The notes under the pieces are model-generated. The model was not told the origin of the DNA, did no database searches, and was given only the letters and a program-made list of their open reading frames with translations. This document shows, piece after piece, positions 7,952 to 35,493 of a stretch of DNA of 64,000 bases. The position numbers and the translations under genes are program-made. Within the stretch, counting starts at the first letter, position 1; each line of letters begins with the position of its first letter. The stretch spans positions 2,379-66,378 of the forward strand of contig JBDREN010000049.1 of NCBI GenBank assembly GCA_043819795.1, given 5' to 3'. The stretch is from Elusimicrobiota bacterium (GTDB lineage Bacteria > Elusimicrobiota > Elusimicrobia > UBA1565).

Positions 7952-7958
7952 ACGGGCG

Positions 7959-10334: not shown

Positions 10335-10622
10335 TCAGTCGGTCCATTCCCGCGACCGAAGGGCCCGGACCTCGTCCTCGAGCTCGGACACCCGGTCTCT
10401 GAGGGTCAGCATCAAGTGGGCTATCCCGACGTCGACGCCGAGGGCGCGGCAGACGCGCTCTATGCGCCGCAGGCGCGGGAGGGCCCGCCGGTCCAGCTCG
10501 ACCCCCTCATCGGTCTCGCGGACCTCGATGACGGACTCTTCGATGGACCGCTGCAGGAAATCCGGCTCGATGAGCAGCGTCTCCGAAAGTCTGAGGATCT
10601 GCGACCGCCTAACCCGCCGCAT
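10335..10622 (-). CDS. cbpM: Chaperone modulator CbpM-like (MerR-like small protein)
   Basis: 95 aa, similar to E. coli CbpM. It sits immediately downstream of, and overlaps, a DnaJ-family gene, which is the classic cbpA-cbpM arrangement. Confidence 0.6.
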   Translation of the reverse strand: MRRVRRSQILRLSETLLIEPDFLQRSIEESVIEVRETDEGVELDRRALPRLRRIERVCRALGVDVGIAHLMLTLRDRVSELEDEVRALRSREWTD

Positions 10623-16280: not shown

Positions 16281-17759
16281 TCAGAGATAGGGGGAGAGCA
16301 GCCGGACGGCGGCGTCCCTGAGCCTCGCGGCGCGATTGCGCAGCATAAGATCCGCGAGTTTGAGCTCCCTCGCGGAGCGGCGTTTGCGGGCCGCGATCCG
16401 CTCCAGCGCGGCGGCCAGGCCCGGGCTGTAGCATTCCAGGTTGAATTCGAAGTTCAGAGCCAGGCTCCTGGGGTCCCAGTTCCCCGATCCGAGAAGGGCC
16501 CAGGACGAATCAACGAGCATCAGCTTGCTGTGGTCGAACGGAGGCGGCGAAAGCCATATCCTGCACCCGCGGGCGAGCAGCTCCGGCAGCAGGGGGTAGG
16601 AGGCCCACTGGACCAGCCGCAGGTTGGAGCGCTCCGGCAGGAGGATGTCCACGCGTACGCCGGCCATGGCCGCCACGCACAGCGCCGTGACCAGCGCCTC
16701 GTCCGGGAGGAAATAGGGCGTCACGACGATCACCGAGCGCCCGGCGCACTCGATCGCGCCCAAGAGCGTCCAGCGCAGCTTGTCGAAATCCTCGTCGGGG
16801 CCGTCGGCGATGCCGCGGGCGAGGACTCCCCCGGCCTCGGCGAGCGGCGGGAACCAGGCCTCTTCCGAAAGACGCTCGCCCGTGCAGAAGAACCAGTCCT
16901 CCGCGAAGACCTCCTGCAGGTCGGCCACCACCGGCCCCTCGACCCGGAAGTGCAGGTCTCGGATCCGCGGGGGCTCCGCGTCCCGCCCTTGGTAGGACTG
17001 GCCGATGTTCAGGCCGCCCGTGAAGCCGGTCCGTCCGTCGGCGACCAGGATCTTCCTGTGGCTGCGCAGGTTCACGTAGGGCATGCCCCACGGGATCATC
17101 GTGGGCATGAAATGCGCGACCCGCACGCCGGCGCGGCGGAGCGAGGACGTGATGGGAGGGACCGAGTAGCGCGCGCCCACGTCGTCTATCAGGACGCGGA
17201 CCTGGACCCCGCGCCGCACGGCGCGGCCGAGGGCCTCCCGGAACGTCGCCCCGACCGCGTCGTTGGAGAAGATATAGGAAGCCAGCGATACGGACCGTTC
17301 GGCCTCGTCGACGGCGCGCAACATCGCCGGGTAGGCCTGCGAGCCGTCTTGAAGCGGGAGTATCCGGTTTCCCGCGAGCAGCGGCCTTCGCGTCACATTG
17401 TCCATCACCCTCGCCAACGGAAGAAGGTGGCGCCGATCGGGCCCCAGGACGGCTCGCAGCGCTTCCGTCCCGGCGGCCTCGCGGCGGCGCGCGAACCGGA
17501 GCTTGCTCGCCCCCTTGCGCAGGCGCACGGCCTTCCTGCGGATCCGGTTGATGCCGAGCAGCATATAGACGCCGGCTCCGATCACCGGGGCGAGCCAGAT
17601 GAGGCCGATCCATCCCGTCGCCGCCCTGGAGTCCCGTTTGTTGACGAGGACGTGGACGGACGCCGCCACGGTGATCGCGAGGGTGAGGGCCCCGGCGATG
17701 TGGGGCTGAAACTGCCGGATCGTCTCGAGAATCGTCGCCGCGATGAGACCTGAGTTCAT
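16281..17759 (-). CDS. cls: Cardiolipin synthase (phospholipase D superfamily, two HKD motifs)
   Basis: Two N-terminal TM helices. HKD motifs HRKILVADG and HSKLMLVDSSWALLGSGN. Confidence 0.85.
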   Translation of the reverse strand: MNSGLIAATILETIRQFQPHIAGALTLAITVAASVHVLVNKRDSRAATGWIGLIWLAPVIGAGVYMLLGINRIRRKAVRLRKGASKLRFARRREAAGTEALRAVLGPDRRHLLPLARVMDNVTRRPLLAGNRILPLQDGSQAYPAMLRAVDEAERSVSLASYIFSNDAVGATFREALGRAVRRGVQVRVLIDDVGARYSVPPITSSLRRAGVRVAHFMPTMIPWGMPYVNLRSHRKILVADGRTGFTGGLNIGQSYQGRDAEPPRIRDLHFRVEGPVVADLQEVFAEDWFFCTGERLSEEAWFPPLAEAGGVLARGIADGPDEDFDKLRWTLLGAIECAGRSVIVVTPYFLPDEALVTALCVAAMAGVRVDILLPERSNLRLVQWASYPLLPELLARGCRIWLSPPPFDHSKLMLVDSSWALLGSGNWDPRSLALNFEFNLECYSPGLAAALERIAARKRRSARELKLADLMLRNRAARLRDAAVRLLSPYL

Positions 17760-18830: not shown

Positions 18831-19823
18831 TCACTTCCATCTGGCGCGCCAGCCCCGGGCGTCTATATGGACGAAGGGCGGGTGGCCGGGGTTTCTACGG
18901 TAGCGCGCCAGGCCGCCCGTCAGGCGGCTCAAGACCGGCTTCCCGAACAGCTCGTCGACCAGGCGGTGAAGGACGTCCGCGTCCCTCCAGTCGGACCTGC
19001 CGTCTCCGTTGAGATCGTCCATGTCGCCGTCTTTCGGCGACTGGTCGACGAAGATGTCCGCGCCCCCGCCCCAGAGATGCCTGCTGTGCTTGACCCGGCC
19101 GATCGCGCGGTTGTGGTGGGGGGTGCGGTAGCCGCTCATGATGTGGAAGGTGTCGGCCCGGTGCCCCTTTTTGTTGAGGGCTTCGAGCAGGAGCTCGAGC
19201 TTGAGCAATAGACGCTCCCGCAGCACGAGGTACTTGGGGAAACCGGACTTCTGCTTGCAGAGGAACTGTCCGAGCGAGAAGTGCGGCGAGACGGGGCGCG
19301 CCATGTTCTCGGCGGTCACCTCCACGAAGCCCGCGGGGGGCTTGTAGATGGGAAGGCCCCGGAAAGGCTTGGCCGGATACTCCCCGATGCGGTATCCGTT
19401 CAGGACTCCTTTGCTGACGCGTGAGTAAGGGACCATCACGAAGGCGTTCAGGAGGATGTCGTCCCCGGACTTCACGCGCGACACGCGGAGCGCGAAGGAG
19501 CCGTGCGTCGATGGGGCCTTCCAGACCCACTTCCGCGGCTCTTTGCGGACCACGTCCCCGGCCTCCGCCCACAGCGTGAACTCCTGCGCGTCCTCCCCGT
19601 CCAGCGCCTCGACGTCCAGACTCTCTCCCGGCAGCACGAATACCGCGAAGACCCGGTATGGGACCGGCTCGCCTTTGACCCTGACCACGAACCCGGCCCG
19701 GCCCGGATCGAAGGGGGGATCGGAGCCGGCCGAGATCGGCGCAGGACGAGACAGGGATGCGAGGACGCATACGACAGGCAGAAGCGGAAGCAGCCGCGAG
19801 CTTCGGCCGAGGCGGATGCTCAT
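18831..19823 (-). CDS. Peptidase M15-like / DUF882 (YcbK/MepK-like murein endopeptidase family)
   Basis: Signal peptide. SGYRTPHHNRAIGRVKHSRHLWGGGADI matches the YcbK/DUF882 zinc-peptidase core. Confidence 0.7.
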   Translation of the reverse strand: MSIRLGRSSRLLPLLPVVCVLASLSRPAPISAGSDPPFDPGRAGFVVRVKGEPVPYRVFAVFVLPGESLDVEALDGEDAQEFTLWAEAGDVVRKEPRKWVWKAPSTHGSFALRVSRVKSGDDILLNAFVMVPYSRVSKGVLNGYRIGEYPAKPFRGLPIYKPPAGFVEVTAENMARPVSPHFSLGQFLCKQKSGFPKYLVLRERLLLKLELLLEALNKKGHRADTFHIMSGYRTPHHNRAIGRVKHSRHLWGGGADIFVDQSPKDGDMDDLNGDGRSDWRDADVLHRLVDELFGKPVLSRLTGGLARYRRNPGHPPFVHIDARGWRARWK

Positions 19824-21487
19824 GGCTCAGGCGGCGTCGAGAGTAGAGCCAGCGCGACGGCTTCGTCCCGTTCGTAGACGTCGCGCCGGAAGTGGACCGC
19901 GCCATCGCCTTCGGCCCACGCGGTCCAGTAGAGGAGATGGACCGGTATGGGCCGTGGAAGCCGCACCGTCCGCTCCTCGCCGGCCTCGATGGCGGCAAGG
20001 ATGCTCTCGCGGCTCCACGCGGGATCGTCCTCGAGCGCCCGCACGGCGAGCTCCAGGGGTCTCTCCACGCGGATGCAGCCCGAGCTGAACGTGCGCGTCC
20101 CTTCGGCGAACAGGCGTCTATCCGGCGTGTCGTGCAGGTAGACGCTGAACTCGTTCGGGAGCATGAATTTGATGCGGCCGAGGGCGTTGAGCGGGCCGGG
20201 CTCCTGCACGAGGCGGTACGGGAAGTCCTCCTCATTGAGGGAGGCCCAGCCGACGGAGTCCGGGTCCACCTCCACCGTCTCGCCCCCGCGGCTTTCATAG
20301 ACCCGCATCCGTTGGCGCTTCAGATAGCGAGGATCCCTTTGGATCTCCGGGAGCTTGTCCGCCACCGCGATGCTGCGCGGGACGTTCCATGAGGGGTTGA
20401 GCACCAGGTACGTCATCCTGTCGCTGAACATGGGAGTGCGCCGGTAGGCGCGGCCGATGATGACGCTCATCCTCAGCGCCTCACGGCCGTCTTCCTGCAT
20501 GCGCAGGCTGAAATCCGGGACATTGACCAGGATGTGCCGGTCCCCGAAGTCCTGCGGCATCCATCGCCACCGCTCCATGTTCACGACGATCTGCTGCGCC
20601 CGGCGCGCCGGGGATACGTTGATCTCCGCGATCGTCCGGGCGCCCGCCACCCCGTCCGCGTCGAGCCCGTGGCGCGCTTGGAAGCGGCGGACCGCCCGTT
20701 CCAGCTCTTCGTCATACAGTTCCGGCGCGGCCGTGCCGGTCCGCTCGATGTCGCCCAAGACCGCCAGCCTGCGGCGCAGCAGAGCGACCGCCGCCCGGCG
20801 GGCGCCGGGGCGCAGGACGGGCGCGGAGGGGATGGCCGTCCACTTGGTCCGCGAGCCCAGACTCCGGTAATGCGCCAGAGCCTCGCGCAGCTTCCAGTAT
20901 CCCGGATCCCTCGGCAGAAGGCCTCTAAGGGCGGCGGAGACCTCCCCCGACGCGAGCGCGTCCTCGAGCACCCTCTCGACGTCGCCTTCCCGCCCGTGGA
21001 CATGCCACTCGGCGTCCAGGGACTGCGGGTTCAGCCGGCCGGACAGGAGGTGCGACGCGTAGACCAGAAAGGCGTCCGTCATGAGGATGTCCGCTTCGGC
21101 CGCCATGTCCCGTGCCCGAGGGGATGCCGGGAGATTTTCGGGCGGCAAAGCCTCGATGGCGCTCAGGTGGTAGTCCTCGGGACGCAGCCCTTCCCGATCC
21201 GCATCGCGCAGGGCCGCGAGCAGCCGGCGTCCGCCCGCATTGAGGCCTCCCTCGGCGACCCACGCCGGCAGGAAGCCTCGCCGCTCATAGAAGGCGGGCA
21301 GGGCAAGCCTGGCGTGCACGCGCTCGTGCCGGGAGGATATCCTCGCGGGCAGGCCCGCGGTCTCGATACGGCGCCTTATCCCCTCGGCGACGCGCTGCTC
21401 CCGATCCGCCTGGGCGGCGGCCGGGACGCGGATCGCGCAGAGCGCGCCGAGGCACAGGCCGGCGAGGATGGCGCGGCGGCGCCCCAT
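19820..21487 (-). CDS. L,D-transpeptidase, YcbB/LdtD-like (PG-binding domain plus YkuD catalytic domain)
   Basis: RFQARHGLDADGVAG (PG_binding_1), YkuD-type catalytic region ...HDTPDRRLF..GTRTFSSGCIRVERP. Start set at ATG 21487 (MGRRRAILAGLCLGALCA); the track ORF extends to 21556. Confidence 0.75.
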   Translation of the reverse strand: MGRRRAILAGLCLGALCAIRVPAAAQADREQRVAEGIRRRIETAGLPARISSRHERVHARLALPAFYERRGFLPAWVAEGGLNAGGRRLLAALRDADREGLRPEDYHLSAIEALPPENLPASPRARDMAAEADILMTDAFLVYASHLLSGRLNPQSLDAEWHVHGREGDVERVLEDALASGEVSAALRGLLPRDPGYWKLREALAHYRSLGSRTKWTAIPSAPVLRPGARRAAVALLRRRLAVLGDIERTGTAAPELYDEELERAVRRFQARHGLDADGVAGARTIAEINVSPARRAQQIVVNMERWRWMPQDFGDRHILVNVPDFSLRMQEDGREALRMSVIIGRAYRRTPMFSDRMTYLVLNPSWNVPRSIAVADKLPEIQRDPRYLKRQRMRVYESRGGETVEVDPDSVGWASLNEEDFPYRLVQEPGPLNALGRIKFMLPNEFSVYLHDTPDRRLFAEGTRTFSSGCIRVERPLELAVRALEDDPAWSRESILAAIEAGEERTVRLPRPIPVHLLYWTAWAEGDGAVHFRRDVYERDEAVALALLSTPPEP

Positions 21488-21593
21488 CTTCGAGGAGATC
21501 CCGGGGCAGGGAAGACGCCGCCGCCCGTCGGCGGGGTCACTGCGCGCGGCGGGCATGGCTCCTTTTGGGCCTCCGGATCACGCCGCCGGCGGC

Positions 21594-22144: not shown

Positions 22145-22687
22145 ATGGAAGCCGTAAACGCTTTGTTCGCCGGGCCGTGGGGACCCCTCATCATCTTCGC
22201 GCTCCGCATCTGCGACGTGTCGATCGCGACCATCCGGATGCTATTGATGATGCGGAGCGCGAAAATGATCGTGCCGATCCTCGCGTTCTTCGAGATCCTC
22301 ATCTGGATATTCGCGATAGGCAGCGCCATCAAGAACCTCAACAGCCCCTGGCATATCCTGGGCTACGCCGGAGGCTTCGCCACAGGGACCGTCGTGGGGA
22401 TGTGGATCGAGGAGAAGCTCGCCTACGGCTATGCCACGGCCCGCTTCATCTCGAAGAAATCCGGAGCCGAGCTGGGCGCGATCCTCAGGGAGAGGGGGTT
22501 CGGCGTCACCGAGCTCTCGGGCCGGGGCCGCGAGGGCGAGGTGGCCGTCTTCGTCAGCGTTGTCCGGCGCAAAGAGCTTGAGGACCTCGTAGCGGCGGCT
22601 CAGCAGGCGGACCCGGACATCTTCGTGACGGTCGAGGAAACGCGGTCGATCGCCCGGGGATGGCTGTTTCCCAGGAGACGGAAGTAA
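22145..22687 (+). CDS. UPF0316 / DUF2179 family membrane protein
   Basis: Closely resembles B. subtilis YebE-type UPF0316 proteins (N-terminal 3-TM region plus C-terminal soluble domain). Confidence 0.65.
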   Translation: MEAVNALFAGPWGPLIIFALRICDVSIATIRMLLMMRSAKMIVPILAFFEILIWIFAIGSAIKNLNSPWHILGYAGGFATGTVVGMWIEEKLAYGYATARFISKKSGAELGAILRERGFGVTELSGRGREGEVAVFVSVVRRKELEDLVAAAQQADPDIFVTVEETRSIARGWLFPRRRK

Positions 22688-22893: not shown

Positions 22894-24000
22894 ATGACGG
22901 ACCCCGGCCAGCCGGCGCAGGGCGACCCCGCCGCCTTCAACCCCCTCGACGGGGCCGAGGGGGATCCTTCCGTCTTCTGGGAGGAGGTCGCCGGACTCCG
23001 GAGAGTGGCCGCGGATCGCGCCGAGCCGCTGGAGCGCCGCCTCGAAGCCTTCGAGGACATTATGGAGTCCGAGGTCGGGGACACGTCGTTCTTGCGCGCC
23101 CGCAAGCTGGAGAGCGAGTTCTCCCTGCGCCAGATCTACCTCAAGTTCGAGGGGGGCAACCCCACCGGCACGCAGAAGGACCGCATCGCTTTCTCCCAGG
23201 TGCTCGACGCCATGCGCCGGGGCTTCGACGCCATCACCCTCGCCACCTGCGGGAACTACGGCGTCGCGGCCGCCCTCGCCGCCTCCATGTGCCGGCTGCG
23301 CTGCATCGTGTACGTCCCGGAGACCTACCGCCCGAGCCGGCTGGGCGAGATCCAGGATCTCGGCGCGGAGGTCGTGCGCGCCGGCGGGGACTACGAGGCG
23401 GCGGTGGCCCTTTCCAGCGAGCGCGCCGCCAAGGAGGAGCTCTACGACGCCAATCCAGGAGGCCAGAACACCCTGCTCCAGCTGCGGGCCTACGGGGAGA
23501 TCTCCTATGAGATCTACGACGAGCTGCGCGACGCTCCCGCCGCCGTGGCCGTGCCCGTGTCCAACGGCACCACCCTCGCCGGGATCTACAAGGGCTTCCT
23601 GAGCCTTTACCGCCGGGGCAAGACCTCCCGGATGCCCAGGCTCGTGGCCGGCTCGGCTTTCAACAAGAATCCCATCGTCCTGGCCTTCCGGAGGGGCAGG
23701 CCCGTCTGCGAGGACCTTCCTCCCCATGTGGTCCGGGAGTCCCGGGTCAACGAGCCGCTGATCAACTGGCATTCCAGCGACGGCGACCACGCGCTGGAAG
23801 CCCTCAGGAAGAGCCATGGCTGGGCGCACAACGCCACGGACCGGATGATGACCGACTTCTGCCGCCTGCTCCGCGAGAAGGAGGGCTACCACGTGCTGCC
23901 CGCCTCCACCGCGGGCCTCATCGCCCTGCTGGAGAGGAACAAAAGCGAGCGGCTCCCGAGCGACCGCTACGTGGCCGTCCTGACGGGTAAGAAGGCATGA
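22894..24000 (+). CDS. PLP-dependent enzyme of the tryptophan-synthase-beta / threonine-synthase-like fold
   Basis: IYLKFEGGNPTGTQKDR (PLP-lysine motif, compare NPTGSFKDR), a glycine-rich loop and ~368 aa. Confidence 0.7.
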   Translation: MTDPGQPAQGDPAAFNPLDGAEGDPSVFWEEVAGLRRVAADRAEPLERRLEAFEDIMESEVGDTSFLRARKLESEFSLRQIYLKFEGGNPTGTQKDRIAFSQVLDAMRRGFDAITLATCGNYGVAAALAASMCRLRCIVYVPETYRPSRLGEIQDLGAEVVRAGGDYEAAVALSSERAAKEELYDANPGGQNTLLQLRAYGEISYEIYDELRDAPAAVAVPVSNGTTLAGIYKGFLSLYRRGKTSRMPRLVAGSAFNKNPIVLAFRRGRPVCEDLPPHVVRESRVNEPLINWHSSDGDHALEALRKSHGWAHNATDRMMTDFCRLLREKEGYHVLPASTAGLIALLERNKSERLPSDRYVAVLTGKKA

Positions 24001-25091
24001 CCGGGTTTCCCGAGGGCCGCGCGGTCGTCTACTGCCAGGGAGCCTTCGCCACCCCCAACGGGAAGACGGCGCACGGGCTGGTCCGCTTCACGCGGCGCTA
24101 CGAGGTCCTCTCCGTCGTGGACGGTTCCTGCGCGGGGCGGGACGCCGGCGTGGTGCTGGACGGCAGGCATCGGGGCATCCCCGTCCTGGCGACCCTGGAG
24201 GAGGCCCTGAAGCACGGCAAAGACGCCGGCCGGCCGGCCACCCACCTGGTGGTCGGGCTCGCGCCCGACGGAGGCCGCCTGCCCCCTTCCGCCAAAGATG
24301 ACATGGCGGCGGCCATCCGGGCCGGGCTGCACGTGGACAGCGGGCTGCACGACTTCCTGAGCGAGGACCCGCTGCTGAGCCGGCTGGCCGCGGAGCGGGG
24401 GGTGCGGATCCGCGACGTGCGCAAGCCCCCGTCGCGCAACGAGCTGAGCTCCTTCAGCGGCCGCATCCGCCAAGTCCGCGCCCCGCGGCTCGCGGTGCTC
24501 GGCACGGACTCGGCGCTCGGCAAACGCACGACAGCCGTGCTCCTGACGGAGGCCCTCCGGGGGCTCGGCTGCAACGCGGAGTTCATCGGGACGGGGCAGA
24601 CGTCGTGGCTGCAGGGGGCGCGCCACTGCATCGTGCTGGATTCCATCATCAACGATTTCGTCGCGGGGGAGATCGAGCGCGTCGTCTGCCTCGCGGACGA
24701 GCGCGAGAACCCCGACGTGATCGTCATCGAGGGCCAGGGCAGCCTGCTCAACCCCGCCTATCCGGGGGGCTTCGAGATACTGGCCGCCGCGCGTCCGGAG
24801 CTGATCGTCCTGCAGCACGCCCCGGCCAGGACGCACTACGACGGCTTCCCGGACTGTCCGATGGACCCGCTCGACCGGCAGATCCAGGCGGTCGAGCTCA
24901 TCGGCAGGAGGCCGCCGGCGGCGATCACGCTCAACCACGAGGGATTGGACGAAGGCCGGATCCCGGCCGTCTGCGAGGATATCTCCCGGAGGACCGGCCT
25001 CCCCGTGTTCGACGTCCTGCTCCAGGGCGCGCAGCCGCTCGCCCGGAGGATCCTCTCCGAAGCCAAGTCGCTATGCCGGCCGTCCGCATGA
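23997..25091 (+). CDS. DUF1611 family protein (Rossmann-like N-domain plus P-loop-containing C-domain), function unknown
   Basis: Overall DUF1611 architecture with GTDSALGKRTT P-loop-like motif. Overlaps the upstream stop by 4 nt. Confidence 0.55.
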   Translation: MTGFPEGRAVVYCQGAFATPNGKTAHGLVRFTRRYEVLSVVDGSCAGRDAGVVLDGRHRGIPVLATLEEALKHGKDAGRPATHLVVGLAPDGGRLPPSAKDDMAAAIRAGLHVDSGLHDFLSEDPLLSRLAAERGVRIRDVRKPPSRNELSSFSGRIRQVRAPRLAVLGTDSALGKRTTAVLLTEALRGLGCNAEFIGTGQTSWLQGARHCIVLDSIINDFVAGEIERVVCLADERENPDVIVIEGQGSLLNPAYPGGFEILAAARPELIVLQHAPARTHYDGFPDCPMDPLDRQIQAVELIGRRPPAAITLNHEGLDEGRIPAVCEDISRRTGLPVFDVLLQGAQPLARRILSEAKSLCRPSA

Positions 25092-25110
25092 CGGGGCAGG
25101 AGGTTTTAAG

Positions 25111-27492
25111 ATGACTTCTAGGGACGCGGCCGGCGACGCCCCTAAGCCGCGCCGCAGGGCCGGCGCCGAGCCTTCGAGCCATCTCGCCGCCCTGCTCTGT
25201 CTCGACGAGCTCCGGGTGGGCCCCCCCAGGCTCGAGCCCCGGAGACTGACGGTGCCCTATGCCGCGACCCGCGACGGCCGCGCCGAGAGCCTGGAGCTCG
25301 TCTACAAGTACGACGAGGACGTCTTCGACCCCGAGGACGAAGGCCACCGCAACCTGGCTTCCATGATCGGCGCCCAGGTGGCGCTGAACTACGGCCTGTT
25401 CTGCCGGGGCATCCGCTTCGACGGGACCTACTCGGAGGCGGACCGCCGGTTCATCGTGGAGATGGCCGAGAACACGGCGCGGGAGATCCTGGTAAAGAAG
25501 CTGCTCCAGCCGAACCCGTTCCTCGTGCCGGACTTCGCCCCGCTGCGGCCGGGGAAGCTCGATACGTACTCCCAGGCCCGAATCCGGTTCTCCTCCCCCG
25601 TGACGGGGGACCGTCAGGTGCCCTGGCAATCCTGGGAGACGAGCCACGAGCGGCTCGCGGTGCTCTCCAGCGGCGGCAAGGACAGCCTCCTGAGCTTCGG
25701 CCTGCTCCAGGAGCTCGGCCGGGAGACGCATCCCATCTTCATCAACGAGTCCGGCCGGCACTGGTTCACCGCGTTCAACGCCTTCAAGCGGTTCAAGGAG
25801 GATGTGCCCCTCACGGCCAAGGTCTGGACCAACGCGGACCAGATGTTCTCCTGGATGCTGCGGCGGCTGCCGTTCATCCGCCGGGACTTCTCCGAGGTGC
25901 GCTCCGACGACTACCCGATCCGTCTGTGGACGGTGGCCGTATTCCTGTTCGGCGCCCTTCCGCTCTTGCGCCGGCGCGGCATCGGCCGCCTCGTCATCGG
26001 CGACGAGTACGACACGACGCGCCGCAGGCGGCATCTCGGCATCCGGCACTACGACGGCCTTTTCGACCAGAGCCGCTACTTCGACAATTATGTGTCGCGC
26101 TACTTCCTGGGCAAGGGCTGGGCCGTGAGCCAGTTCTCCCTGCTGCGCCCCTTGTCCGAGCTTCTGGTCCAGAAGACGCTGGTCGAGCGCTATCCCGATC
26201 TCCAGAGGCTGCAGGTCTCCTGCCACGCCGCCCACATGCGGGAGGGGGCGGCGCGGCCCTGCGGCGGCTGCGAGAAGTGCCGCCGCGTGGTCGGGATGCT
26301 CCTGGCCGCGGACGCGGACCCCTCGCGCTGCGGCTACACCCCGGCGCAGGTCGAAAGCTGTCTCTCCCAGATGGGCAGCAAGGGCGTGCATCAGGAGGAA
26401 GCCTGCTGGCGGCACGTGCTGTTCCTGCTGCGATCCAAGGGGCTCCTCCGCCGGGAAGGGCCCCTGATCGCGCGGGCGGAGGAGAAGCCCGAGGCGCTCA
26501 GCCTGCGCTTCGACGGCGAACGCGCGCCCCTGGACGCCGTCCCCGTGGACCTGCGCCGCCCCCTCTACCGCATCCTCCTGGGCCACGCCGCGGGCGCGAT
26601 GAGGCGGGTGGAGCGGCGCTGGGCGCCCTTCGACCTGCTGGCCGACCGCGGTCTCGCGAAGACCTACCCCTTCGAGTTCGAGACCAAGCGTCAGCCGGGG
26701 GAAGGCGCTCCCCGCAGCTATCTTTACGGCGAGCTGACCTGGCCCGAGATGACGGAGAGGCTGCGGAAGGTCGACCTCGCCCTCCTCCCCGTGGGCGCGA
26801 TCGAGCAGCACGGGCCGCACCTGCCGCTCGACACCGACGCATTCGACGCCGCCTACCTGGCGAGCCGGGTCGCCGAGGCGTGCGGCAAGCCCCAGCCCCT
26901 GGTCCTTCCGGGCATCCCATACGGCGTCTCGTATCACCACGACGAATTCAAGGGCACCGTGAGCATCCGGAACGGCACGCTCTCCGGCCTCGTCTACGAC
27001 GTCGGCATGAGCCTGGCCCGCAACGGCATCCGGAAGCTCGTCATCATCAACGGCCACGGCGGGAACAGCCCGGCGCTCAACTACGCCGCGCAGATGATCA
27101 ACCGCGACGCCCGCATCTTCGTCTGCGTCGATACCGGCGAGACCAGCGACGTGGACATCAACGAGCTGATCGAGACGCCCAACGACGTGCACGCCGGCGA
27201 GATCGAGACCAGCACGGCCCTGGCGGTCCGGCCGGAGCTGGTCCGGATGCGCCTGGCCAAGCGCTCCGTCCCGAGGTTCTCCAGCCGCTATCTCGACTTC
27301 AGCTCGAAGCGCAGCATCTCCTGGCACGCCCACACCAAAAGGATCTCCGAGAGCGGCGTGATGGGCGACCCCACGCGCGCGAGCCGGGAGAAGGGCCGGC
27401 GTATCTGGGAGATCATGGTCGCCCACCTGGTCAACCTGGTGGAGGAGCTGAAATCCTTGAGCCTCGAAGAGATATGCCAGCGCCGCTACTGA
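25111..27492 (+). CDS. Fusion protein: N-terminal domain, PP-loop ATP pyrophosphatase (SGGKDS; QueC/Dph6-like with CxxCxxC zinc motif), and C-terminal creatininase-family amidohydrolase
   Basis: PP-loop LAVLSSGGKDSLLSF at ~residue 187 and CGGCEKCRR at ~372. The C-terminal 250 aa carry creatininase signatures LLPVGAIEQHGPHLPLDTD, IINGHGGN and HAGEIETS. Confidence 0.7.
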   Translation: MTSRDAAGDAPKPRRRAGAEPSSHLAALLCLDELRVGPPRLEPRRLTVPYAATRDGRAESLELVYKYDEDVFDPEDEGHRNLASMIGAQVALNYGLFCRGIRFDGTYSEADRRFIVEMAENTAREILVKKLLQPNPFLVPDFAPLRPGKLDTYSQARIRFSSPVTGDRQVPWQSWETSHERLAVLSSGGKDSLLSFGLLQELGRETHPIFINESGRHWFTAFNAFKRFKEDVPLTAKVWTNADQMFSWMLRRLPFIRRDFSEVRSDDYPIRLWTVAVFLFGALPLLRRRGIGRLVIGDEYDTTRRRRHLGIRHYDGLFDQSRYFDNYVSRYFLGKGWAVSQFSLLRPLSELLVQKTLVERYPDLQRLQVSCHAAHMREGAARPCGGCEKCRRVVGMLLAADADPSRCGYTPAQVESCLSQMGSKGVHQEEACWRHVLFLLRSKGLLRREGPLIARAEEKPEALSLRFDGERAPLDAVPVDLRRPLYRILLGHAAGAMRRVERRWAPFDLLADRGLAKTYPFEFETKRQPGEGAPRSYLYGELTWPEMTERLRKVDLALLPVGAIEQHGPHLPLDTDAFDAAYLASRVAEACGKPQPLVLPGIPYGVSYHHDEFKGTVSIRNGTLSGLVYDVGMSLARNGIRKLVIINGHGGNSPALNYAAQMINRDARIFVCVDTGETSDVDINELIETPNDVHAGEIETSTALAVRPELVRMRLAKRSVPRFSSRYLDFSSKRSISWHAHTKRISESGVMGDPTRASREKGRRIWEIMVAHLVNLVEELKSLSLEEICQRRY

Positions 27493-27508
27493 GCCGGCCG
27501 GGGCCGCG

Positions 27509-28579
27509 ATGAGGATCGCCCGCTGCGAGGCCTGGCTCGTGGAGATGCCCCTGTCCGAGCCCTACGAGATCGCCTATGAGAAGGTCGACAAGGCTCGAAA
27601 CGTGTTCCTGCGCGTCGAGACCACCCGGGGGACCTCGGGCTTCGGCTGCGCGGCGCCGGACCCGAACATCACCGGCGAGACCGTCGAGCAGGCGCTGGCC
27701 GCTCTGCGGGACGCGGCCCCGCCCGTCCTGAAAGGGCTCGATCCCCTGCGCCCGGTCATGGTCATGGAGCGGTTCAAGGTGTCTCTTCAGGCCTTCCCCT
27801 CCGCTCGCGCTGCGATCGACATGGCGCTCCACGACATCTTGGGAAAGGAAGCGGGGCTCCCCCTGTGGAAGCTCCTGGGCGGGTTCCGTTCATCCTTCCG
27901 GACCACCGTCACGCTGGGGATCATGGGCGTCCGCGAGTCCGTCGATAGGTCCCTGGAGATGGCGGCCCGCGGCTTCAAGGCGCTGAAGATCAAGGGGGGG
28001 CTGGACGCGGAGCAGGACGTCGAGCGGCTGGTCCGTATCCGGGAAGCGGTGGGGCCCAGGATCGAGCTGCGATTCGACGCCAACCAGGGCTATACGGCCG
28101 AGCAGACGGCGCGGTTCCTCCGCCGGACGCGCCCGGTCAAGCTGGAGCTCATCGAGCAGCCCACGCCGAGCAAGGACCTCGACCAGCTGGAGCGCGCGAC
28201 CCGGATGGCCTCGATCCCCGTGATGGCCGACGAGAGCCTCATCAACCTCCGGGACGCCTTCCGCCTCGTCCGCAGGGGCATCGCGGACATGGTGAACATC
28301 AAGCTGATGAAGTGCGGCGGCATCACGGAGGCTCTCAACATCAACTCGGTGGCCAAGGCCGGGGGCTACGAGGCGATGGTCGGCTGCATGGACGAGTCGG
28401 CCCTTGCGATCGCGGCCGGCCTGGCTTTCGCCCTGTGCCGGCCGAACGTCGCCTATGCGGACCTGGACGGACACCTGGGCCTGGCGGGCGATCCGTTCGA
28501 GGGGTCGGTCGTGCTGAAGGAAGGAGTGCTCTATCCCACCGGGGCTCCGGGCCTGGGCTGCAAGGCGCCGCGGTCATGA
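27509..28579 (+). CDS. Dipeptide epimerase (L-Ala-D/L-Glu epimerase-like), enolase superfamily MR/MLE subgroup
   Basis: KxK motif (ALKIKGG), metal ligands D/E/D (RFDANQGY, ELIEQP, VMADESL) and second catalytic Lys (NIKLMKCGG). Confidence 0.8.
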   Translation: MRIARCEAWLVEMPLSEPYEIAYEKVDKARNVFLRVETTRGTSGFGCAAPDPNITGETVEQALAALRDAAPPVLKGLDPLRPVMVMERFKVSLQAFPSARAAIDMALHDILGKEAGLPLWKLLGGFRSSFRTTVTLGIMGVRESVDRSLEMAARGFKALKIKGGLDAEQDVERLVRIREAVGPRIELRFDANQGYTAEQTARFLRRTRPVKLELIEQPTPSKDLDQLERATRMASIPVMADESLINLRDAFRLVRRGIADMVNIKLMKCGGITEALNINSVAKAGGYEAMVGCMDESALAIAAGLAFALCRPNVAYADLDGHLGLAGDPFEGSVVLKEGVLYPTGAPGLGCKAPRS

Positions 28580-30195: not shown

Positions 30196-30825
30196 ATGTT
30201 CATGAAGTTCAAGAAAGCCCTCTATAAAAATTTCATGGCCGGACTGCTGGTGGTCGTGCCGATCGGCGCGACCTGGATGATCCTGCGGTTCGTGGCGCGC
30301 AGGCTGGACGCCGTGCTGCCCCTGCCCGTCCCGGGCCTGGGCGTGGTGGTCGTCCTGGTCGTGATCGTGCTCGTCGGCGCGCTCGGCAGGCTGTTCGCCG
30401 TGCGCAGGGCGATCGACCTTGGCAACCGCTTCCTGGCCAGCGTGCCGCTGGTCAATAAGATATACGAGCCCTTGCGGCAGATCCTGCACTTTCTGCTGGC
30501 CAAGAAGCCCCATGCCTTCGGGCAGCCGGCCCTCATCGAGTTCCCGCGCAGGGGCATGCGCAGCCTGTGCTTCGTGACCGGGGCCGCTTCCGGGTCCGTC
30601 CGGGAAGCCATGGGCGAGGACTCCGTGCACGTGTTCTGTCCGACCTCGCCCAATCCCACCTCGGGCTTTCTCCTCGTCGTCCCCCGTAGGGACGTGGTCC
30701 TTCTGAGGATGGGCGTGGAGGAGGCGCTGCGCCTGATCCTCTCCGGGGGCATGGTCGGCGCCCAAGCCGCGCAGCCCAGGGCTCAAGCCGCAGGCGAGGA
30801 GCGCTCGCACGAGAAGCCCGATTGA
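30196..30825 (+). CDS. DUF502 family membrane protein
   Basis: Two N-terminal TM helices and a DUF502-like conserved core (PLVNKIYEPLRQIL...GFLLVVPRRDVV). Confidence 0.65.
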   Translation: MFMKFKKALYKNFMAGLLVVVPIGATWMILRFVARRLDAVLPLPVPGLGVVVVLVVIVLVGALGRLFAVRRAIDLGNRFLASVPLVNKIYEPLRQILHFLLAKKPHAFGQPALIEFPRRGMRSLCFVTGAASGSVREAMGEDSVHVFCPTSPNPTSGFLLVVPRRDVVLLRMGVEEALRLILSGGMVGAQAAQPRAQAAGEERSHEKPD

Positions 30826-30941
30826 CGGGCCCGTGGTTGGGCCGGCTCGTCCGTTGTCCGCCCGTCGGGAACTTCTTCACCGAGGCTCCGTAGTGCAGGC
30901 AGGACGCCTTCGGAGCGGGATGATTATCAGGGAGGATCCAT

Positions 30942-32255
30942 ATGCCCACGCGCACGTTGGCCGTTGCCGCCGTCCGGCAGCTGATCGAAGCCGATCCTAG
31001 ACGGGCCGCGTTCTTCCTAGAGGGCCTCGACATCAATGATGCGGGAGCCATGCTGGCCGCCTTGCCGCCGTCCTCCGCGCGCCGCCTCTTCAAGCACCTC
31101 CAGCCCGCCTTCGCGGGCAGGATGCTGAGCGCCTTGCGGCCGGACAGTGTCGCCGCGGTCCTGGAGAGTGTCGAGCCCGAAGCCGCGGTCGATGCCTTCC
31201 GCTCCATGGAGAACGGGGTCCGTCAGACGGTGCTGGGCGCTCTTTCCGAGCAGAGGAAGATCGCGCTTCAGGAGCTGTTGGCCTATCCGGAAGGGAGCGC
31301 GGGCAGGCTCATGAGCACCGACGTCGTGTCCTTCATCCAGGGGACCAAGGTGCGCGAAGTCATCCAGAGGCTGCGCGCGGCCGTCAGGAAGGGCTCGTCG
31401 CCGACGTACGCCTACGTCGTCGATGAGGACCGGAAGCTCAAGGGGGTCCTGGTGATGCGGGACCTGCTCTTCGCGGATTCGGGCGCGCCGATCGAGAGCG
31501 TGATGAGCCCGGGGGTCAAGGCCGTATCCGGCTTCACGGACCGCGAGGATTTGGTCCAGCTGGCCAAGGAGAGACGCTACCTCTCGGTGCCGGTGGTGGA
31601 CGCGGACGGACGGATCCTCGGCTCGGTGCGCATGGCCGAGCTCCTGGAGTCCAGCCAGGAGGAGGCCGGCGAGGACATCCAGCTCATGTTCGGCGGGAGC
31701 GCGGACGAGAGGCCGTTCTCTCCGGTCTCGTTCAAGCTGGCGCGAAGGCTGCCGTGGCTCCATGTGAACCTCGTTACGGCCTTCATGGCCGGGGCGGTGG
31801 TGGCCCTCTTCGAGGGACTGATCAGCCAGCTGGCCGTGCTCGCGGTGTTCCTGCCGATCATCGCGGGGCAGGGGGGCAACGCCGGGACCCAGACGCTGTC
31901 CGTGGTCCTGCGCGGCCTCATCATGCGGGAGATCCGGCCCCGGGACGCTTGGCGCGCGATCGTCAGGGAGTCGGGGGTGGGCGCGATCACCGGCCTGGTC
32001 ACGGGCGTGGTGACCGCAGGCGTGGCGTGGCTGTGGAAGGGGAACCTGTTTCTGGGGCTCGTCGTGGGGCTCGCCATGATCGTGAACCTGGTCGCGGCGG
32101 GGGCCGCGGGCGCGGTCATACCGCTGGCCATGAAGAGGCTCGGCTTCGACCCGGCCCAATCCTCGGGCATCATCCTTACCACGGTGACGGACGTCGTCGG
32201 TTTCTTCGCCTTCCTGGGCTTCGCGTTCCTGTTCCGGAGCCGGCTCATCGGATGA
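30942..32255 (+). CDS. mgtE: Magnesium transporter MgtE
   Basis: MgtE N-domain, tandem CBS-like region (VVDEDRKLKGVLVMRDLL, SVPVVDADGRILGSVRMAELL) and C-terminal 5-TM MgtE pore domain (PIIAGQGGNAGTQT). Confidence 0.85.
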   Translation: MPTRTLAVAAVRQLIEADPRRAAFFLEGLDINDAGAMLAALPPSSARRLFKHLQPAFAGRMLSALRPDSVAAVLESVEPEAAVDAFRSMENGVRQTVLGALSEQRKIALQELLAYPEGSAGRLMSTDVVSFIQGTKVREVIQRLRAAVRKGSSPTYAYVVDEDRKLKGVLVMRDLLFADSGAPIESVMSPGVKAVSGFTDREDLVQLAKERRYLSVPVVDADGRILGSVRMAELLESSQEEAGEDIQLMFGGSADERPFSPVSFKLARRLPWLHVNLVTAFMAGAVVALFEGLISQLAVLAVFLPIIAGQGGNAGTQTLSVVLRGLIMREIRPRDAWRAIVRESGVGAITGLVTGVVTAGVAWLWKGNLFLGLVVGLAMIVNLVAAGAAGAVIPLAMKRLGFDPAQSSGIILTTVTDVVGFFAFLGFAFLFRSRLIG

Positions 32256-32268
32256 GCGCGCGCCGCGA

Positions 32269-35200
32269 TCACCGGAAGGCGAAGTTGAGCAGGATGTCGA
32301 TGACGTACGTGCCGTCGCTCGAGTCGCGGCCCTCCAGGCTCCAGCGGGGCGAGAGCGTGTAACGCGCCTCGACGCGCCTCTGCCCCGCGGGTCCCAGCGT
32401 CTGGCCGTAGGTCACGAAGAGCCGCTTCGTGAGATACTTCCCGGCGGTCACGTCCGCTTCCCGCGCCCCCCTGGCACGCACCTGGAAGGTGTCGATCTTG
32501 GCCTTGCGGATGACGTGCCGATGGAGGCTCCGGGAGACGTACTCGGTGAACAGCCGGGCCGCTTCCTCCCGCTTCTTCTTGGAGTCGCTCTCCGATCCCA
32601 GATCGTAGACGGGCTTTCCCAGGGTGAGCATGGAGATGATGTCGCGCTGCTCCATGGGGGGCTCCGAGCTCAGAGACACGACGGGCCGGCTGGCCGTGCC
32701 GCTCAGGTCAAGGAAGACCTTGGCCCGCGTGCCCTGGTCCACGTAGACGGCTCGGACGTCGATGGTGGGATCCGGGGGAGCCGCGCCCGAGAACTCGGCG
32801 CGCCCTTCCCGGATATCGAACGGCCGGCCGTAGATGACGTAGCGGCCCTGCAGGGTCCGCACCGCGCCCAGGATCCGGGCGGGCTCGCTTTGCTCTTTCT
32901 TCACGAGGAGCTCGCCTTTGGTCTCTATGTCGCTCGCGCCCTGCCGGAACCAGGCGTTCCTGTCGAAGCGCACGCGCAGGTCGAGCTGCAGCGGGGACAT
33001 CTCCGCCCGCGCGGAAGCCTTCAACTCCCGGGCCCCGCGCGCGGGGGCGCGCGGGGAGGCCGGAGCCTCGGGCTTCTTGGGGGGCGGCATGAATTCGGCC
33101 TCGGAGAGCGCGATCGTCCCTCCCACCCGGAGGGCTTTCCAGGCTCCTTTCAGGCCGACGTCGAGGTCCGCCTCTCCCGAGAGGCCGGCCTCGGAGCGGA
33201 AAGGAAGGTTCCGCGCCGAGACGAGTAGATCAGGCCCGTCCAGCCCGGCCTCGCCGGACAGCGTCAGGGTCCCGCGCGGCTCCTCTATCTTCCGTTCGAA
33301 TATCCCGGAGAGCCTTCGGGCGACGCGCCGCAGCAGGCCGGCCAGCGGCGGCTCCTGTCCCAGAGGGACCGCCGATCCCCGCAACGACAGGGCCGGTCGT
33401 CCTTCTCCAACGGCGCTTAGGGTCACGCCGGTCAGCGTTATCCCGGCCGCGGGGATGCGGACGGCTTCCGCGCGCAGAGCCGCCTCGCCGTCGCAGAACG
33501 GCGCGCCGGCGCGCCGGCCGACGCGCATCCGCCCCGAGAGCCGGCTTGACTCCGGAACGATCGCGTCGGACCAAGCGGCCAGGGGAGCGGGATCGAACCC
33601 GTCCGCTTCCAGGTCCACGAGGAAGTCGGGGGTCTCGCCCCCGCCGAAAGCCAGCGGCGCCGTGCCGCGGAGGGTCAGCGTTCCCCCTCCGGATTCCCAG
33701 AGCAGAGTCTCGACGCGCAGGGTCTTCCCGTCGGAGGAGAGCCTGCCAGAAATGTCGCCCAGCGGCCGTCTCCGCCAATGCCCGTCTCGGAGCCGGAAGG
33801 CCGCCTTCCCCGACGGCGCGGACAGCGCGCCTTTCAGCTCGATCGCGGCGTCCACCTCTCCGTCCAATGGGACCGTGCGGACGCCTATGTGCCGCAGAAA
33901 GGCGGGGTCGAAGCCGGACGCGGTCATCCGGAGGCGCTCGAAGATGGTCCCCCTCGCGGCCGCGTCGACCGCGAGCCGCGCCTTCCCATCCGAGACCGCG
34001 AGGCTCGAGACCGACCAGGCGCCGGACCCGATCTCGGTCTTGAACGGCGTCGAGCTGCGGTATACCCGCCCCGCGTATGCTTGAAGCTCTTTCCAACGCA
34101 CGGTCCAGACGCCGCCGGCGAGCGCGCCGCTCCCTCTCGCCGCCAAAGTACCGCCGGAGACCGCCGCCTCCCAATCGGTCGTGTGCGAGGAGGTCGAGCC
34201 TGAGAGGGATACCCGCGCCTCATCCAGGGAGACCGCCCCGGCGCGCAGTCCCGCCGCGACCACCCGCACGTCCATGACGGCCGGCCGCAAGCCGCGGCCC
34301 GCGGCGGTGAATGCCGCGCTGGAGAGGCGGATGGTTTCGTGGTCCAGGCCTTCCATCCGGCCTTCGGCCCGCCATCGCAAGGCCGGCCACGTTCCGGAGA
34401 CCGATCCCGCGGCCCGCATCCCCGCCGCCCAGGTCCCGGCCAGGCGTCGGATCGCGGCCGCGTCCGCCTCCAGCGTCCAGGTCGCCCGAACGACGCCGGA
34501 CTCGAAGGAGCCTAGGGAGGAGGCGGAGGCTCCCGCCGTGGAGAGCTCCACGCGCCAGTCCGTTCTTCCCTCCGCCGTATGTCCCTTCGCCTGGAGGCGG
34601 AGGCCTCCCTCCTCTTGCAGATCGAACAGGCCCGCGGATATTCCTCCCGGACCGGGACCGCCGCCCTTTGCCTGGAGGTCGCCGGAGACGGGCGCGATCC
34701 GGAAAGGCAGGGCGATCATCAAGTCGGCCGGGTCCAGCCGGGCCAGGTTCCCCTGGAAATGCCAGGCGTTCTCCTTGTCCGAGCGGGCGGCGACAGAGAG
34801 CGACGGTTTCCGTCGCTTCTTGATCTCGGCGTTGGCCTTCCAGCCTTCCGCATCGCGGGTCCACCGGAAGGACCCCTCGATGTCGCGGTCCCAGCGCAGG
34901 GTCGTGTTCACGGAGAGAGGGGCAAAACCGACCGTGCCTGTGGCATTCATCTCCCGCCCCGCCATGCGCCACGTGGCTGATTCGAGGTGAACGCGCTCTT
35001 CGTCCACGCGCAGGCGGGCGTCCAGACGTTCGATCCGGCCGGGCAGGATCGCGGAAGGGGGCTCCCATATGATGGCCCCCTCCTGGATGCTGGCTCGGAG
35101 GAGGGATATGATCCAGGCCGGCTTCTTGCGCGCGGAAGAATCCGGCAGGGATGTTTCCCCGGGCGGTTTGAGCCGCAGGGTCGGCCGGGTCAGCGCCAGC

Positions 35201-35493
35201 GATGTCACGATCACGCGCTTGCGCAACAAAGACTTCGCGTCTACCTTCATGGCCAAGCGGGGAACCGCGAGGACGCCTGCGGGCCAGCTCAGCTCGACGT
35301 CGTGGAGCACGAGGCCTTCGGCGGGGCTTCCCGATACGCCGCCGACTTCCACGCGCACGCCCGTCCGGGCCTCGAGCCAGGAGGCCGCTTTTTCGACGAA
35401 CGGTCCCGGAATCCTGAGCGCCGCGGTCGCCGGCCCGGCGACGGCCGCCATCGCCGCCGCGAGGAGCGCAAAGTGAAGGGGCTTGCGGCCCAT
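32269..35493 (-). CDS. tamB: Translocation and assembly module subunit TamB (DUF490 C-terminus)
   Basis: N-terminal signal-anchor MGRKPLHFALLAAAMAAVAG, >1000 aa beta-rich body and DUF490-like C-terminus. I set the start to ATG 35491-35493, which overlaps the tamA stop (ATGA); the track ORF continues to 36213 in a non-homologous leader. Confidence 0.75.
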   Translation of the reverse strand: MGRKPLHFALLAAAMAAVAGPATAALRIPGPFVEKAASWLEARTGVRVEVGGVSGSPAEGLVLHDVELSWPAGVLAVPRLAMKVDAKSLLRKRVIVTSLALTRPTLRLKPPGETSLPDSSARKKPAWIISLLRASIQEGAIIWEPPSAILPGRIERLDARLRVDEERVHLESATWRMAGREMNATGTVGFAPLSVNTTLRWDRDIEGSFRWTRDAEGWKANAEIKKRRKPSLSVAARSDKENAWHFQGNLARLDPADLMIALPFRIAPVSGDLQAKGGGPGPGGISAGLFDLQEEGGLRLQAKGHTAEGRTDWRVELSTAGASASSLGSFESGVVRATWTLEADAAAIRRLAGTWAAGMRAAGSVSGTWPALRWRAEGRMEGLDHETIRLSSAAFTAAGRGLRPAVMDVRVVAAGLRAGAVSLDEARVSLSGSTSSHTTDWEAAVSGGTLAARGSGALAGGVWTVRWKELQAYAGRVYRSSTPFKTEIGSGAWSVSSLAVSDGKARLAVDAAARGTIFERLRMTASGFDPAFLRHIGVRTVPLDGEVDAAIELKGALSAPSGKAAFRLRDGHWRRRPLGDISGRLSSDGKTLRVETLLWESGGGTLTLRGTAPLAFGGGETPDFLVDLEADGFDPAPLAAWSDAIVPESSRLSGRMRVGRRAGAPFCDGEAALRAEAVRIPAAGITLTGVTLSAVGEGRPALSLRGSAVPLGQEPPLAGLLRRVARRLSGIFERKIEEPRGTLTLSGEAGLDGPDLLVSARNLPFRSEAGLSGEADLDVGLKGAWKALRVGGTIALSEAEFMPPPKKPEAPASPRAPARGARELKASARAEMSPLQLDLRVRFDRNAWFRQGASDIETKGELLVKKEQSEPARILGAVRTLQGRYVIYGRPFDIREGRAEFSGAAPPDPTIDVRAVYVDQGTRAKVFLDLSGTASRPVVSLSSEPPMEQRDIISMLTLGKPVYDLGSESDSKKKREEAARLFTEYVSRSLHRHVIRKAKIDTFQVRARGAREADVTAGKYLTKRLFVTYGQTLGPAGQRRVEARYTLSPRWSLEGRDSSDGTYVIDILLNFAFR

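Follow-up and report, generated by a model that had tools for sequence, protein, structure and literature searches.

A QueC-type PP-loop ATP pyrophosphatase fused to a creatininase-family amidohydrolase: a widespread operon enzyme with a possible role in amino-acid D/L metabolism

Introduction

In a 64,000-nucleotide stretch of DNA from an Elusimicrobiota bacterium (GenBank assembly GCA_043819795.1, contig JBDREN010000049.1, positions 2,379 to 66,378 of the forward strand; the whole stretch is called the window), a single gene encodes a protein of 793 amino acids (aa) in which a QueC-type PP-loop ATP pyrophosphatase module of about 520 aa (the N-module) is joined to a creatininase-family amidohydrolase domain. 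We regard this open reading frame (ORF) as very probably that of a genuine bifunctional enzyme with the architecture and the two classes of chemistry just named. The gene is the third of a four-gene operon whose other members encode a pyridoxal 5'-phosphate (PLP) enzyme, a DUF1611 protein, and an enolase-superfamily dipeptide epimerase. From its domains and its gene context, the most likely function of the fusion protein is the ATP-driven activation and amide hydrolysis of a dipeptide-like amino-acid substrate in a D/L-interconversion pathway. A role in amino-acid or dipeptide D/L metabolism is thus plausible, if somewhat short of probable.

An earlier note on this DNA had described the gene as an unusual fusion of a PP-loop ATP pyrophosphatase carrying a zinc motif with a creatininase-family hydrolase, preceded by an additional N-terminal region, and had known of no characterized enzyme of this architecture. 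Both domain calls were right, and the N-terminal region is real, forming an alpha/beta subdomain (aa 28-170). Our literature searches likewise found no characterized member of the fusion and no description of the operon; automated pipelines already label the protein (the Joint Genome Institute, JGI, names some homologs creatininase/QueC-like).

Evidence for a genuine gene fusion

The fusion gene and its parts lie on the forward strand of the window as follows.

25111..27492, + strand: operon gene 3, the fusion gene; one uninterrupted ORF of 793 aa, ATG to TGA
25192..25620, + strand: N-terminal alpha/beta subdomain of the N-module (aa 28-170), family-specific
25633..26310, + strand: QueC-type PP-loop ATP pyrophosphatase core (aa ~175-400)
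25669..25686, + strand: PP-loop SGGKDS (aa 187-192)
26221..26280, + strand: Cys4 zinc site, C371 followed by C384-G-G-C387-E-K-C390
26311..26670, + strand: C-terminal helical/beta subdomain of the N-module (aa 401-520), modeled with a predicted local distance difference test score (pLDDT) of 84-97
26671..26730, + strand: inter-domain linker (aa ~521-540), pLDDT below 50 at aa 525-542
26731..27441, + strand: creatininase-family binuclear-metal amidohydrolase domain (aa 541-777), Pfam PF02633

More than 120 full-length homologs of 772-836 aa align to the fusion protein with 60-65% identity and 96-100% coverage, and they come from many independent assemblies; the entry "creatininase family protein" (P0001) of an Elusimicrobiota metagenome-assembled genome (MAG) is identical to it. 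Scanning one genome per species gave at least 596 species genomes with a relative, and the fusion-locus counts given in this work come from tblastn searches of the best 80 of these species-genome loci (L004-L083). Among these best 80 loci and three others, 80 loci contained both halves, in a single reading frame in 78 of the 80, with a median length of 793 aa. The architecture persists at 33% identity (P0151, P0153). Within the gene itself, the G+C content at third codon positions (GC3) is 0.85-1.00 in all 40-codon blocks, including those of the junction region (aa 441-560).

Homologs, single-ORF loci, and GC3 all agree on a genuine fusion, and they leave practically no probability for the artifact that the earlier note had held up against its own reading, namely a sequencing or assembly error that deleted a stop codon and merged two neighboring genes. 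Nothing was found in favor of such an error, the weak point of the fusion being its linker of about 20 aa, which is modeled with low confidence and is variable, whereas the independent homologs from many phyla, the fusions at 33% identity, and the uniform in-frame GC3 all stand against it. The linker differs in length and sequence among homologs (alignment A1, columns ~575-598), and alignment and model confidence together confine it to about aa 521-545. The region aa 440-540, which had been described as containing no motif, is instead mostly a conserved and confidently modeled subdomain.

Two long ORFs overlap the fusion gene, one of 831 aa in antisense (24931-27426, - strand) and one of 528 aa in another frame (25926-27512, + strand). 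In a sequence of 69% G+C such as this one, both are shadow ORFs. Clustering across loci likewise grouped antisense reading frames of the operon genes into spurious "families".

The N-terminal module and its relatives

Membership of the N-module in the PP-loop ATP pyrophosphatase superfamily is seen in an SGGxDS motif closing the first strand and in a Rossmann-like fold. The fold resembles QueC, QatC, and Cap9, with 13-18% identity to solved QueC-family chains, and it carries the C-terminal Cys4 zinc site of the QueC type (SCH at aa 370-372 and CGGCEKC at aa 384-390), with a cysteine spacing like that of the QueC zinc site. The N-module differs from the QueC family (QueC; Cap9 of the type IV cyclic oligonucleotide-based antiphage signaling system, CBASS; QatC of QatABCD) in its additional family-specific N- and C-terminal subdomains. 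Sequence searches detect little of this resemblance. When aa 1-540 and three sub-pieces were searched against Pfam, no match was obtained other than PAPS_reduct (E 0.15), and PF06508 did not appear at E ≤10; against the sequences of Protein Data Bank (PDB) chains, the only match was a ribosomal protein hit by chance (E 0.11). The N-module is a distinct family that has no Pfam model, both halves of the protein being otherwise of known superfamilies.

A HMMER search of 1.84 billion representative proteins gave 438 relatives of the N-module, which fall into three groups, i.e., creatininase fusions, many stand-alone proteins of 460-520 aa, and one fusion to DUF1611. Because the stand-alone homologs align to aa 28-508 of the fusion protein, we consider the whole region of about 520 aa to be a single evolutionary unit. 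Across 36 fusion proteins and 13 diverse N-modules, the PP-loop residues S187, G188, G189, K190, and S192 do not vary, and C371, C384, C387, and C390 are invariant in alignments A1, A2, and A3. Fusion and stand-alone members alike keep the PP-loop, the NESGxHW, GxExD, and DQS motifs, and the four cysteines; N93, F97, and D111 of the N-terminal subdomain are conserved across both kinds, and R466, P478, R482, G495, and W504 of the C-terminal subdomain are invariant within the fusion family. Two stand-alone proteins, P0131 and P0209, have a degenerate PP-loop (VESGTND and LNAAPEA; alignment A2, columns ~207-214) with the zinc cysteines kept, and from these residues they may be non-catalytic paralogs.

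The sole named family matched by the N-module sequence was MurL (NF041275), with E 7e-6 over aa 339-394, a stretch that includes the Cys4 zinc site, and 25 bits against a cutoff of 700. Of the family members, P0240 matches the MurL model best (E 7e-10, 37.9 bits, model positions 130-354) and is itself matched by the fusion protein (E 1.9e-28), so that the homology to MurL is transitive, running from the fusion protein through P0240 to the MurL model. Six of 18 diverse N-module family members matched MurL, and there was one other weak match (E 0.007). When relatives of P0240 were sought to find a true MurL, five hypothetical proteins were obtained, none of them named MurL. By these scores the N-module and MurL are remote homologs only.

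MurL requires ATP and Mg, releases AMP, and is proposed to act by adenylation of the alpha-carboxylate, epimerization, and hydrolysis; it has been called an "unprecedented" ATP-dependent peptide epimerase, with no known domains (PMC5808125, PMC8788868). Its ATP-dependent release of AMP and its action on the C-terminal residue of a peptide have a counterpart in the fusion operon, which likewise has an epimerase for the C-terminal residue of a dipeptide. The two differ in that MurL is a protein of about 447 aa that stands alone beside murD2, while the N-module of about 520 aa is joined to a hydrolase and has PLP, DUF1611, and enolase-type neighbors; neither murD2 nor any other Mur ligase gene adjoins the fusion gene in the inspected loci, which have no UDP-MurNAc context. 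QueC-family enzymes form amides from adenylated carboxylates and, in CBASS and Qat defense, attach a deazaguanine base to proteins (PMC13279940). Adenylation of a carboxylate is the chemistry common to the relatives of the N-module (MurL and the QueC family). In the literature searched, no source appears to connect MurL with the QueC-type PP-loop/zinc fold.

The creatininase domain

PF02633 is the only Pfam domain of the fusion protein, and it is matched over its entire length (245.1 bits against a gathering score of 31.3, E 8.6e-73, model positions 2-238 of 238, aa 541-777). The domain contains the signatures EQHGPH (aa 565-570), NGHGGN (aa 647-652), and HAGEIE (aa 694-699), and solved creatininases match it at about 1e-24 (PDB 1q3k, 3a6*, 3lub, 3no4). 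Residues E565, H567, D576, H649, E699, and H694 are invariant in 36 homologs, and in the alignment to 1q3k the first five fall on the metal ligands of creatininase (Glu, His, Asp, His, Glu) and H694 on its catalytic histidine. The domain is a di-metal amidohydrolase of this family that retains every catalytic residue.

Among curated subfamilies the nearest is the peptide-cleaving MftE, the mycofactocin peptidyl-dipeptidase (TIGR03964), which the domain matches with 150.9 bits against a cutoff of 172; creatinine amidohydrolase proper (TIGR04448) is matched with 112.3 bits against a cutoff of 235. The domain thus differs from the characterized members of the creatininase family (creatinine amidohydrolase, MftE, ArfB, IolN) in lying below the cutoff of every characterized subfamily and in sitting behind an ATPase module. 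Neither the window nor any of four annotated homologous loci contains radical-SAM or mft genes.

The other genes of the operon

The remaining operon genes and a neighboring gene, all on the same strand as the fusion gene, are the following.

22145..22687, + strand: small membrane protein, DUF5698 + DUF2179 (Pfam)
22894..24000, + strand: operon gene 1, fold-type II PLP enzyme, threonine-synthase-like, with the PLP lysine in GTQKDR
23997..25091, + strand: operon gene 2, DUF1611 protein with a Rossmann-like N domain and a P-loop domain (Pfam DUF1611_N and DUF1611)
27509..28579, + strand: operon gene 4, enolase-superfamily dipeptide epimerase (Pfam MR_MLE_N and MR_MLE_C)

The four genes are tightly packed: genes 1 and 2 overlap by 4 bp, and gaps of 19 bp and 16 bp separate the fusion gene from the DUF1611 gene and from the epimerase gene, respectively. 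The PLP enzyme matches Pfam PALP (E 8.6e-54) and NCBIfam NF004996 (408 bits against a cutoff of 266); solved threonine synthases match it only remotely (E 1e-26). The DUF1611 protein has PDB matches to 2obn, 2g0t, and 7xrj; its score to NCBIfam DgcN, 162.6 bits against a cutoff of 480, marks it as a paralog rather than an ortholog of this D-Glu N-acetyltransferase.

The epimerase matches solved dipeptide epimerases (3rit at 2.6e-69, 3jva, and YkfB 1jpm). In an alignment to 1jpm, 3rit, and 3jva, its catalytic lysines (LKIK, NIKLMK), its metal ligands, and the ammonium-binding DxD motif (D318-L-D320) are all present, and K160, K162, D318, and D320 are invariant in 62 orthologs. At the position equivalent to Arg24 of YkfB, which binds the Glu side chain of the substrate, the 62 orthologs have Glu (55), Gln (6), or Asp (1). 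Since an acidic residue or Gln replaces the Arg in all of them, the epimerase is not of the Ala-Glu type, and it scores below the cutoffs both of the L-Ala-D/L-Glu epimerase family NF041118 (212 against 500 bits) and of DgcA (170.1 against 400 bits), of which it is a paralog and not an ortholog. From the Glu at this position, the enzyme is predicted to have no preference for Glu as C-terminal residue and may favor a basic one.

The DUF5698 + DUF2179 protein encoded ahead of the PLP gene may be operon-associated, possibly as a regulator or as a transporter of the substrate or product that the pathway handles. DUF2179 proteins, either in the short DUF5698 form or as full YitT, flank the operon in ~23 of the 80 fusion loci (e.g., L035:6757-7614 and L050:11416-12282). 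No Rfam family reached its gathering score in the 64-kb window or in eight homologous loci.

Distribution and operon variants

The four genes occur in the order PLP, DUF1611, fusion, epimerase in 59 of the 80 fusion loci, from more than 10 phyla, 12 of the 80 being too short to judge; existing annotations of a Latescibacterota chromosome, a Holophagae MAG, and a JGI contig show this gene order as well. The taxa of the fusion loci include Ignavibacteria, Acidobacteriota, Gemmatimonadota, Latescibacterota, Desulfobacterota, Calditrichota, Planctomycetota, Bacteroidales, Zixibacteria, KSB1, and others, with the delta proteobacterium NaphS2 (contig ADZZ01000547.1, locus L065) as a cultured host. 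We conclude that the operon is present in at least several hundred species, mostly uncultured, extending also to Elusimicrobiota, Bacteroidota, NC10, and some archaea; the source names of the metagenomes suggest sediment and groundwater habitats. With N-module relatives in at least 596 species genomes, the best 80 of which carry the fusion, the architecture is not rare, contrary to its description as unusual.

Six of the 80 loci, all from Desulfobacterales, have the PLP and fusion genes only, with neither DUF1611 nor epimerase, and a YitT/DUF2179 protein usually follows directly. One Desulfobacterales MAG (bin D0606S02metaG_Bin_280) carries three copies of this two-gene variant plus YitT, on contigs L035, L041, and L069, which reflects either paralog expansion or heterogeneity of the bin.

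Stand-alone modules were surveyed in a second set of 80 loci, from a metagenome scan seeded with such modules. DUF1611 lies directly upstream of the module in all 69 of the loci with upstream sequence, usually with a PLP gene before it, and no creatininase was found in the 80 loci. A GNAT gene follows the module convergently in 51 of the 80, and an M14-like protein of ~450 aa and an epimerase adjoin each other in 23 of the 80. In NC10 the operon consists of PALP, DUF1611, a 497-aa module, and epimerase, with no hydrolase. Because the module occurs without a creatininase domain both in NC10 and in the stand-alone subfamily, we regard this domain as an optional, lineage-specific addition, and the layouts of these two define a core of PLP enzyme, DUF1611, and module (plus epimerase). 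The amidohydrolase would then be supplied by the fused creatininase, possibly by a nearby M14-like protein, or not within the operon. That DUF1611 and the N-module work together is indicated independently by P0124, a natural fusion of the two (855 aa; DUF1611 at aa 44-349, PP-loop N-module at aa 379-854), possibly cut by a contig end.

Several further features accompany individual loci. In L003, an AlaDh_PNT-type dehydrogenase (446 aa, 6656-7996) is inserted before the fusion gene and a 310-aa protein with no Pfam match (10433-11365) before the epimerase gene. Upstream of the operon, 6 of 67 loci carry sigma-54-type -24/-12 elements (TGGCA[CT]-N5-[TC]TGCT), where ~0.5 would be expected; all six are from Desulfobacterota (L035, L047, L050, L064, L080, L081), with the element 85-334 nt upstream of the PLP gene, and there is none in the window. 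Genes for NtrC-type sigma-54 activators lie within 8 kb in 18 loci. On a complete Desulfobacterales chromosome (L048:10435-14795, - strand), convergent with the fusion gene, are a gene for a 749-aa fusion of a histone-deacetylase-type protein with GNAT and two genes for D-Ala-D-Ala-ligase-like ATP-grasp proteins; such Ddl-like genes are found within 8 kb in 6 of the 80 loci.

Just upstream of the operon, the window encodes an L,D-transpeptidase (Scaffold + PG_binding_1 + YkuD, 19820-21556, - strand) and an M15/DUF882-type peptidase (18831-19823, - strand). In L003, an unrelated locus, this pair also comes before the operon (1-2247); it is absent from the other 78 loci, M15 alone being present in L016; a general link to peptidoglycan genes was rejected, as the pair is restricted to the window and L003. 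The surroundings of the operon in the window (13442-15985, + strand; 16281-17759, - strand; 30196-32255, + strand; 32269-36213, - strand) encode proteins related to the envelope or to ions: AsmA-like, PLD-type (cardiolipin-synthase-like), and DUF502 proteins, the Mg transporter MgtE, and a TamB protein of 1314 aa. CorA or MgtE genes are near the operon in ~11 other loci and MscS in 5, which may be coincidence.

Proposed function and alternatives

In the scheme that we favor, the N-module would adenylate the carboxylate of an amino-acid or dipeptide-type metabolite (ATP converted to AMP + PPi) and, probably together with the DUF1611 protein, would make or re-make an amide bond to a partner with a free amine. 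The product, an N-aminoacyl (dipeptide-like) compound, would then have its C-terminal residue inverted by the enolase-type epimerase, and the creatininase domain would cleave the amide to release the inverted amino acid and the acyl or aminoacyl "handle", which the fusion protein's own N-module could re-activate. The PLP enzyme would serve as the source of the free amino acid or as its sink. The net result would be an ATP-driven D/L conversion or turnover of an amino acid, with the net energetics of MurL and, as in MurL, directional because of the ATP-dependent step. The specific handle-recycling cycle is unlikely to hold in all its steps, and we rate as rather unlikely the larger claim that the operon represents a previously unrecognized ATP-driven cycle of stereoinversion or directional turnover in which the creatininase returns a recyclable handle to the N-module. 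An activation cycle, one of the possibilities raised in the earlier note, is compatible with the operon content; the channeling between the two active sites that it took the fusion to imply has no support as an obligatory feature, since the operon also occurs with the N-module alone (NC10 and the large stand-alone subfamily).

In the DgcN-DgcA and N-succinyl-amino-acid racemase pathways, an amino acid is acylated, racemized, and deacylated, and the proposed scheme would share this logic. The likeness of the fusion operon to these two pathways lies in the combination of DUF1611 and an enolase-superfamily enzyme in one operon, with an amidohydrolase as third component and inversion via an N-substituted intermediate. 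It differs from both in that its epimerase keeps the DxD of dipeptide epimerases (for a free N-terminal amine) and has Glu at the Arg24 position. DgcN-DgcA is the precedent from D-glutamate catabolism (PMC10845958), compared with which the fusion operon adds the ATP-dependent module and the PLP enzyme. Murein-peptide recycling by MpaA (M14)-YcjG or YkfA-C is similar in placing a dipeptide epimerase beside a peptidase (M14-like, in the stand-alone subfamily), as well as in the L,D-transpeptidase/M15 pair upstream in the window and L003, and different in that the operon epimerase does not have the Glu-binding Arg and in that links to peptidoglycan genes are present in only 2-3 of the 80 loci.

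Several observations weigh against the scheme. The NC10 operon has no hydrolase at all, and hydrolysis therefore is not an obligatory step; the six Desulfobacterales loci have neither DUF1611 nor an epimerase gene, so that there the fusion protein and the PLP enzyme must act without epimerization. An ATP-dependent ligase joined to a hydrolase risks a futile cycle unless both are stereospecific. The DUF1611 protein and the epimerase are far below the DgcN and DgcA cutoffs, the roles given to the PLP enzyme and DUF1611 are guesses, and the substrate is putative.

An operon for the biosynthesis of a small exported or accumulated peptide-like metabolite (e.g., a D-residue dipeptide or an N-acyl amino acid, serving as osmolyte or signal) is an unlikely alternative. 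Here an unusual amino acid from the PLP enzyme would be ligated by the N-module (with DUF1611), the epimerase would set the stereochemistry, the creatininase would trim, mature, or recycle the product, and YitT or an MFS protein would transport it. QueC-family enzymes are amide-forming ligases (PMC13279940), Ddl-like ATP-grasp ligases are encoded in 6 loci, and a creatininase domain that is optional is what a tailoring step would be; YitT/DUF2179 in ~23 of the 80 loci, MFS transporters in several, and MscS, CorA, or MgtE in some also fit. Against this, the sigma-54-type promoters with NtrC-type activators in Desulfobacterota and the M14 and GNAT neighbors look more catabolic, and genes for ion channels and transporters accompany the operon infrequently and possibly by chance.

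It is quite improbable that the N-module acts as MurL does, being itself an ATP-driven unidirectional epimerase that activates an N-acyl or peptidyl amino acid by adenylation of its C-terminal carboxylate and racemizes it via an activated or cyclic (oxazolone-like) intermediate, with the creatininase stereoselectively hydrolyzing the ring or the activated species. MurL is the sole characterized homolog detected by sequence, and its proposed mechanism runs through adenylation, epimerization, and hydrolysis. Creatininase hydrolyzes creatinine, a five-membered cyclic amide, so the founding member of the family on the hydrolase side is a ring-opening enzyme. A second epimerase would be redundant, however, since a classical two-base dipeptide epimerase is encoded in 59 of the 80 loci; the MurL model, with its cutoff of 700, is matched with a mere 25-38 bits, the stand-alone and NC10 versions do without the creatininase domain, and the oxazolone is our conjecture.

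There is very little to recommend a known role of one of the parent families, i.e., QueC in queuosine/7-deazaguanine synthesis, QatC or Cap9 in anti-phage conjugation, creatinine degradation, or mycofactocin maturation by MftE. The fold similarity to QueC, QatC, and Cap9, the JGI naming of some homologs, and the rank of MftE as top-scoring curated creatininase subfamily speak for it. The 13-18% identity, the lack of a PF06508 match, and the subfamily scores (112 against 235 bits for TIGR04448 and 151 against 172 for MftE) speak against it, as do the neighborhoods: no 7-deazaguanine (queD/E/F), CBASS (Cap10/CD-NTase), QatABD, or mft genes were present in those inspected, a PADLOC scan for defense systems gave no match, and a 2026 survey of the QueC family mentions neither the creatininase fusion nor MurL.

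Conclusions

Since the fusion is common and the coupling of its halves is not obligatory, the emphasis that the earlier note had placed on both is tempered. What the N-module gains is a relative of known activity: MurL is its only biochemical anchor, and the shared placement of both in the QueC-type PP-loop/zinc group gives a mechanistic frame, carboxylate adenylation, for the two. If the stereoinversion cycle were true, MurL, which was described as having no known domain, would be a QueC-type PP-loop/zinc enzyme. Should D-amino acids or D-residue dipeptides be what the pathway handles, it would be relevant to the recycling of necromass from peptidoglycan by anaerobes; if they are not, the fusion protein is still a well-defined target for enzyme discovery, with NaphS2 as a cultured host.

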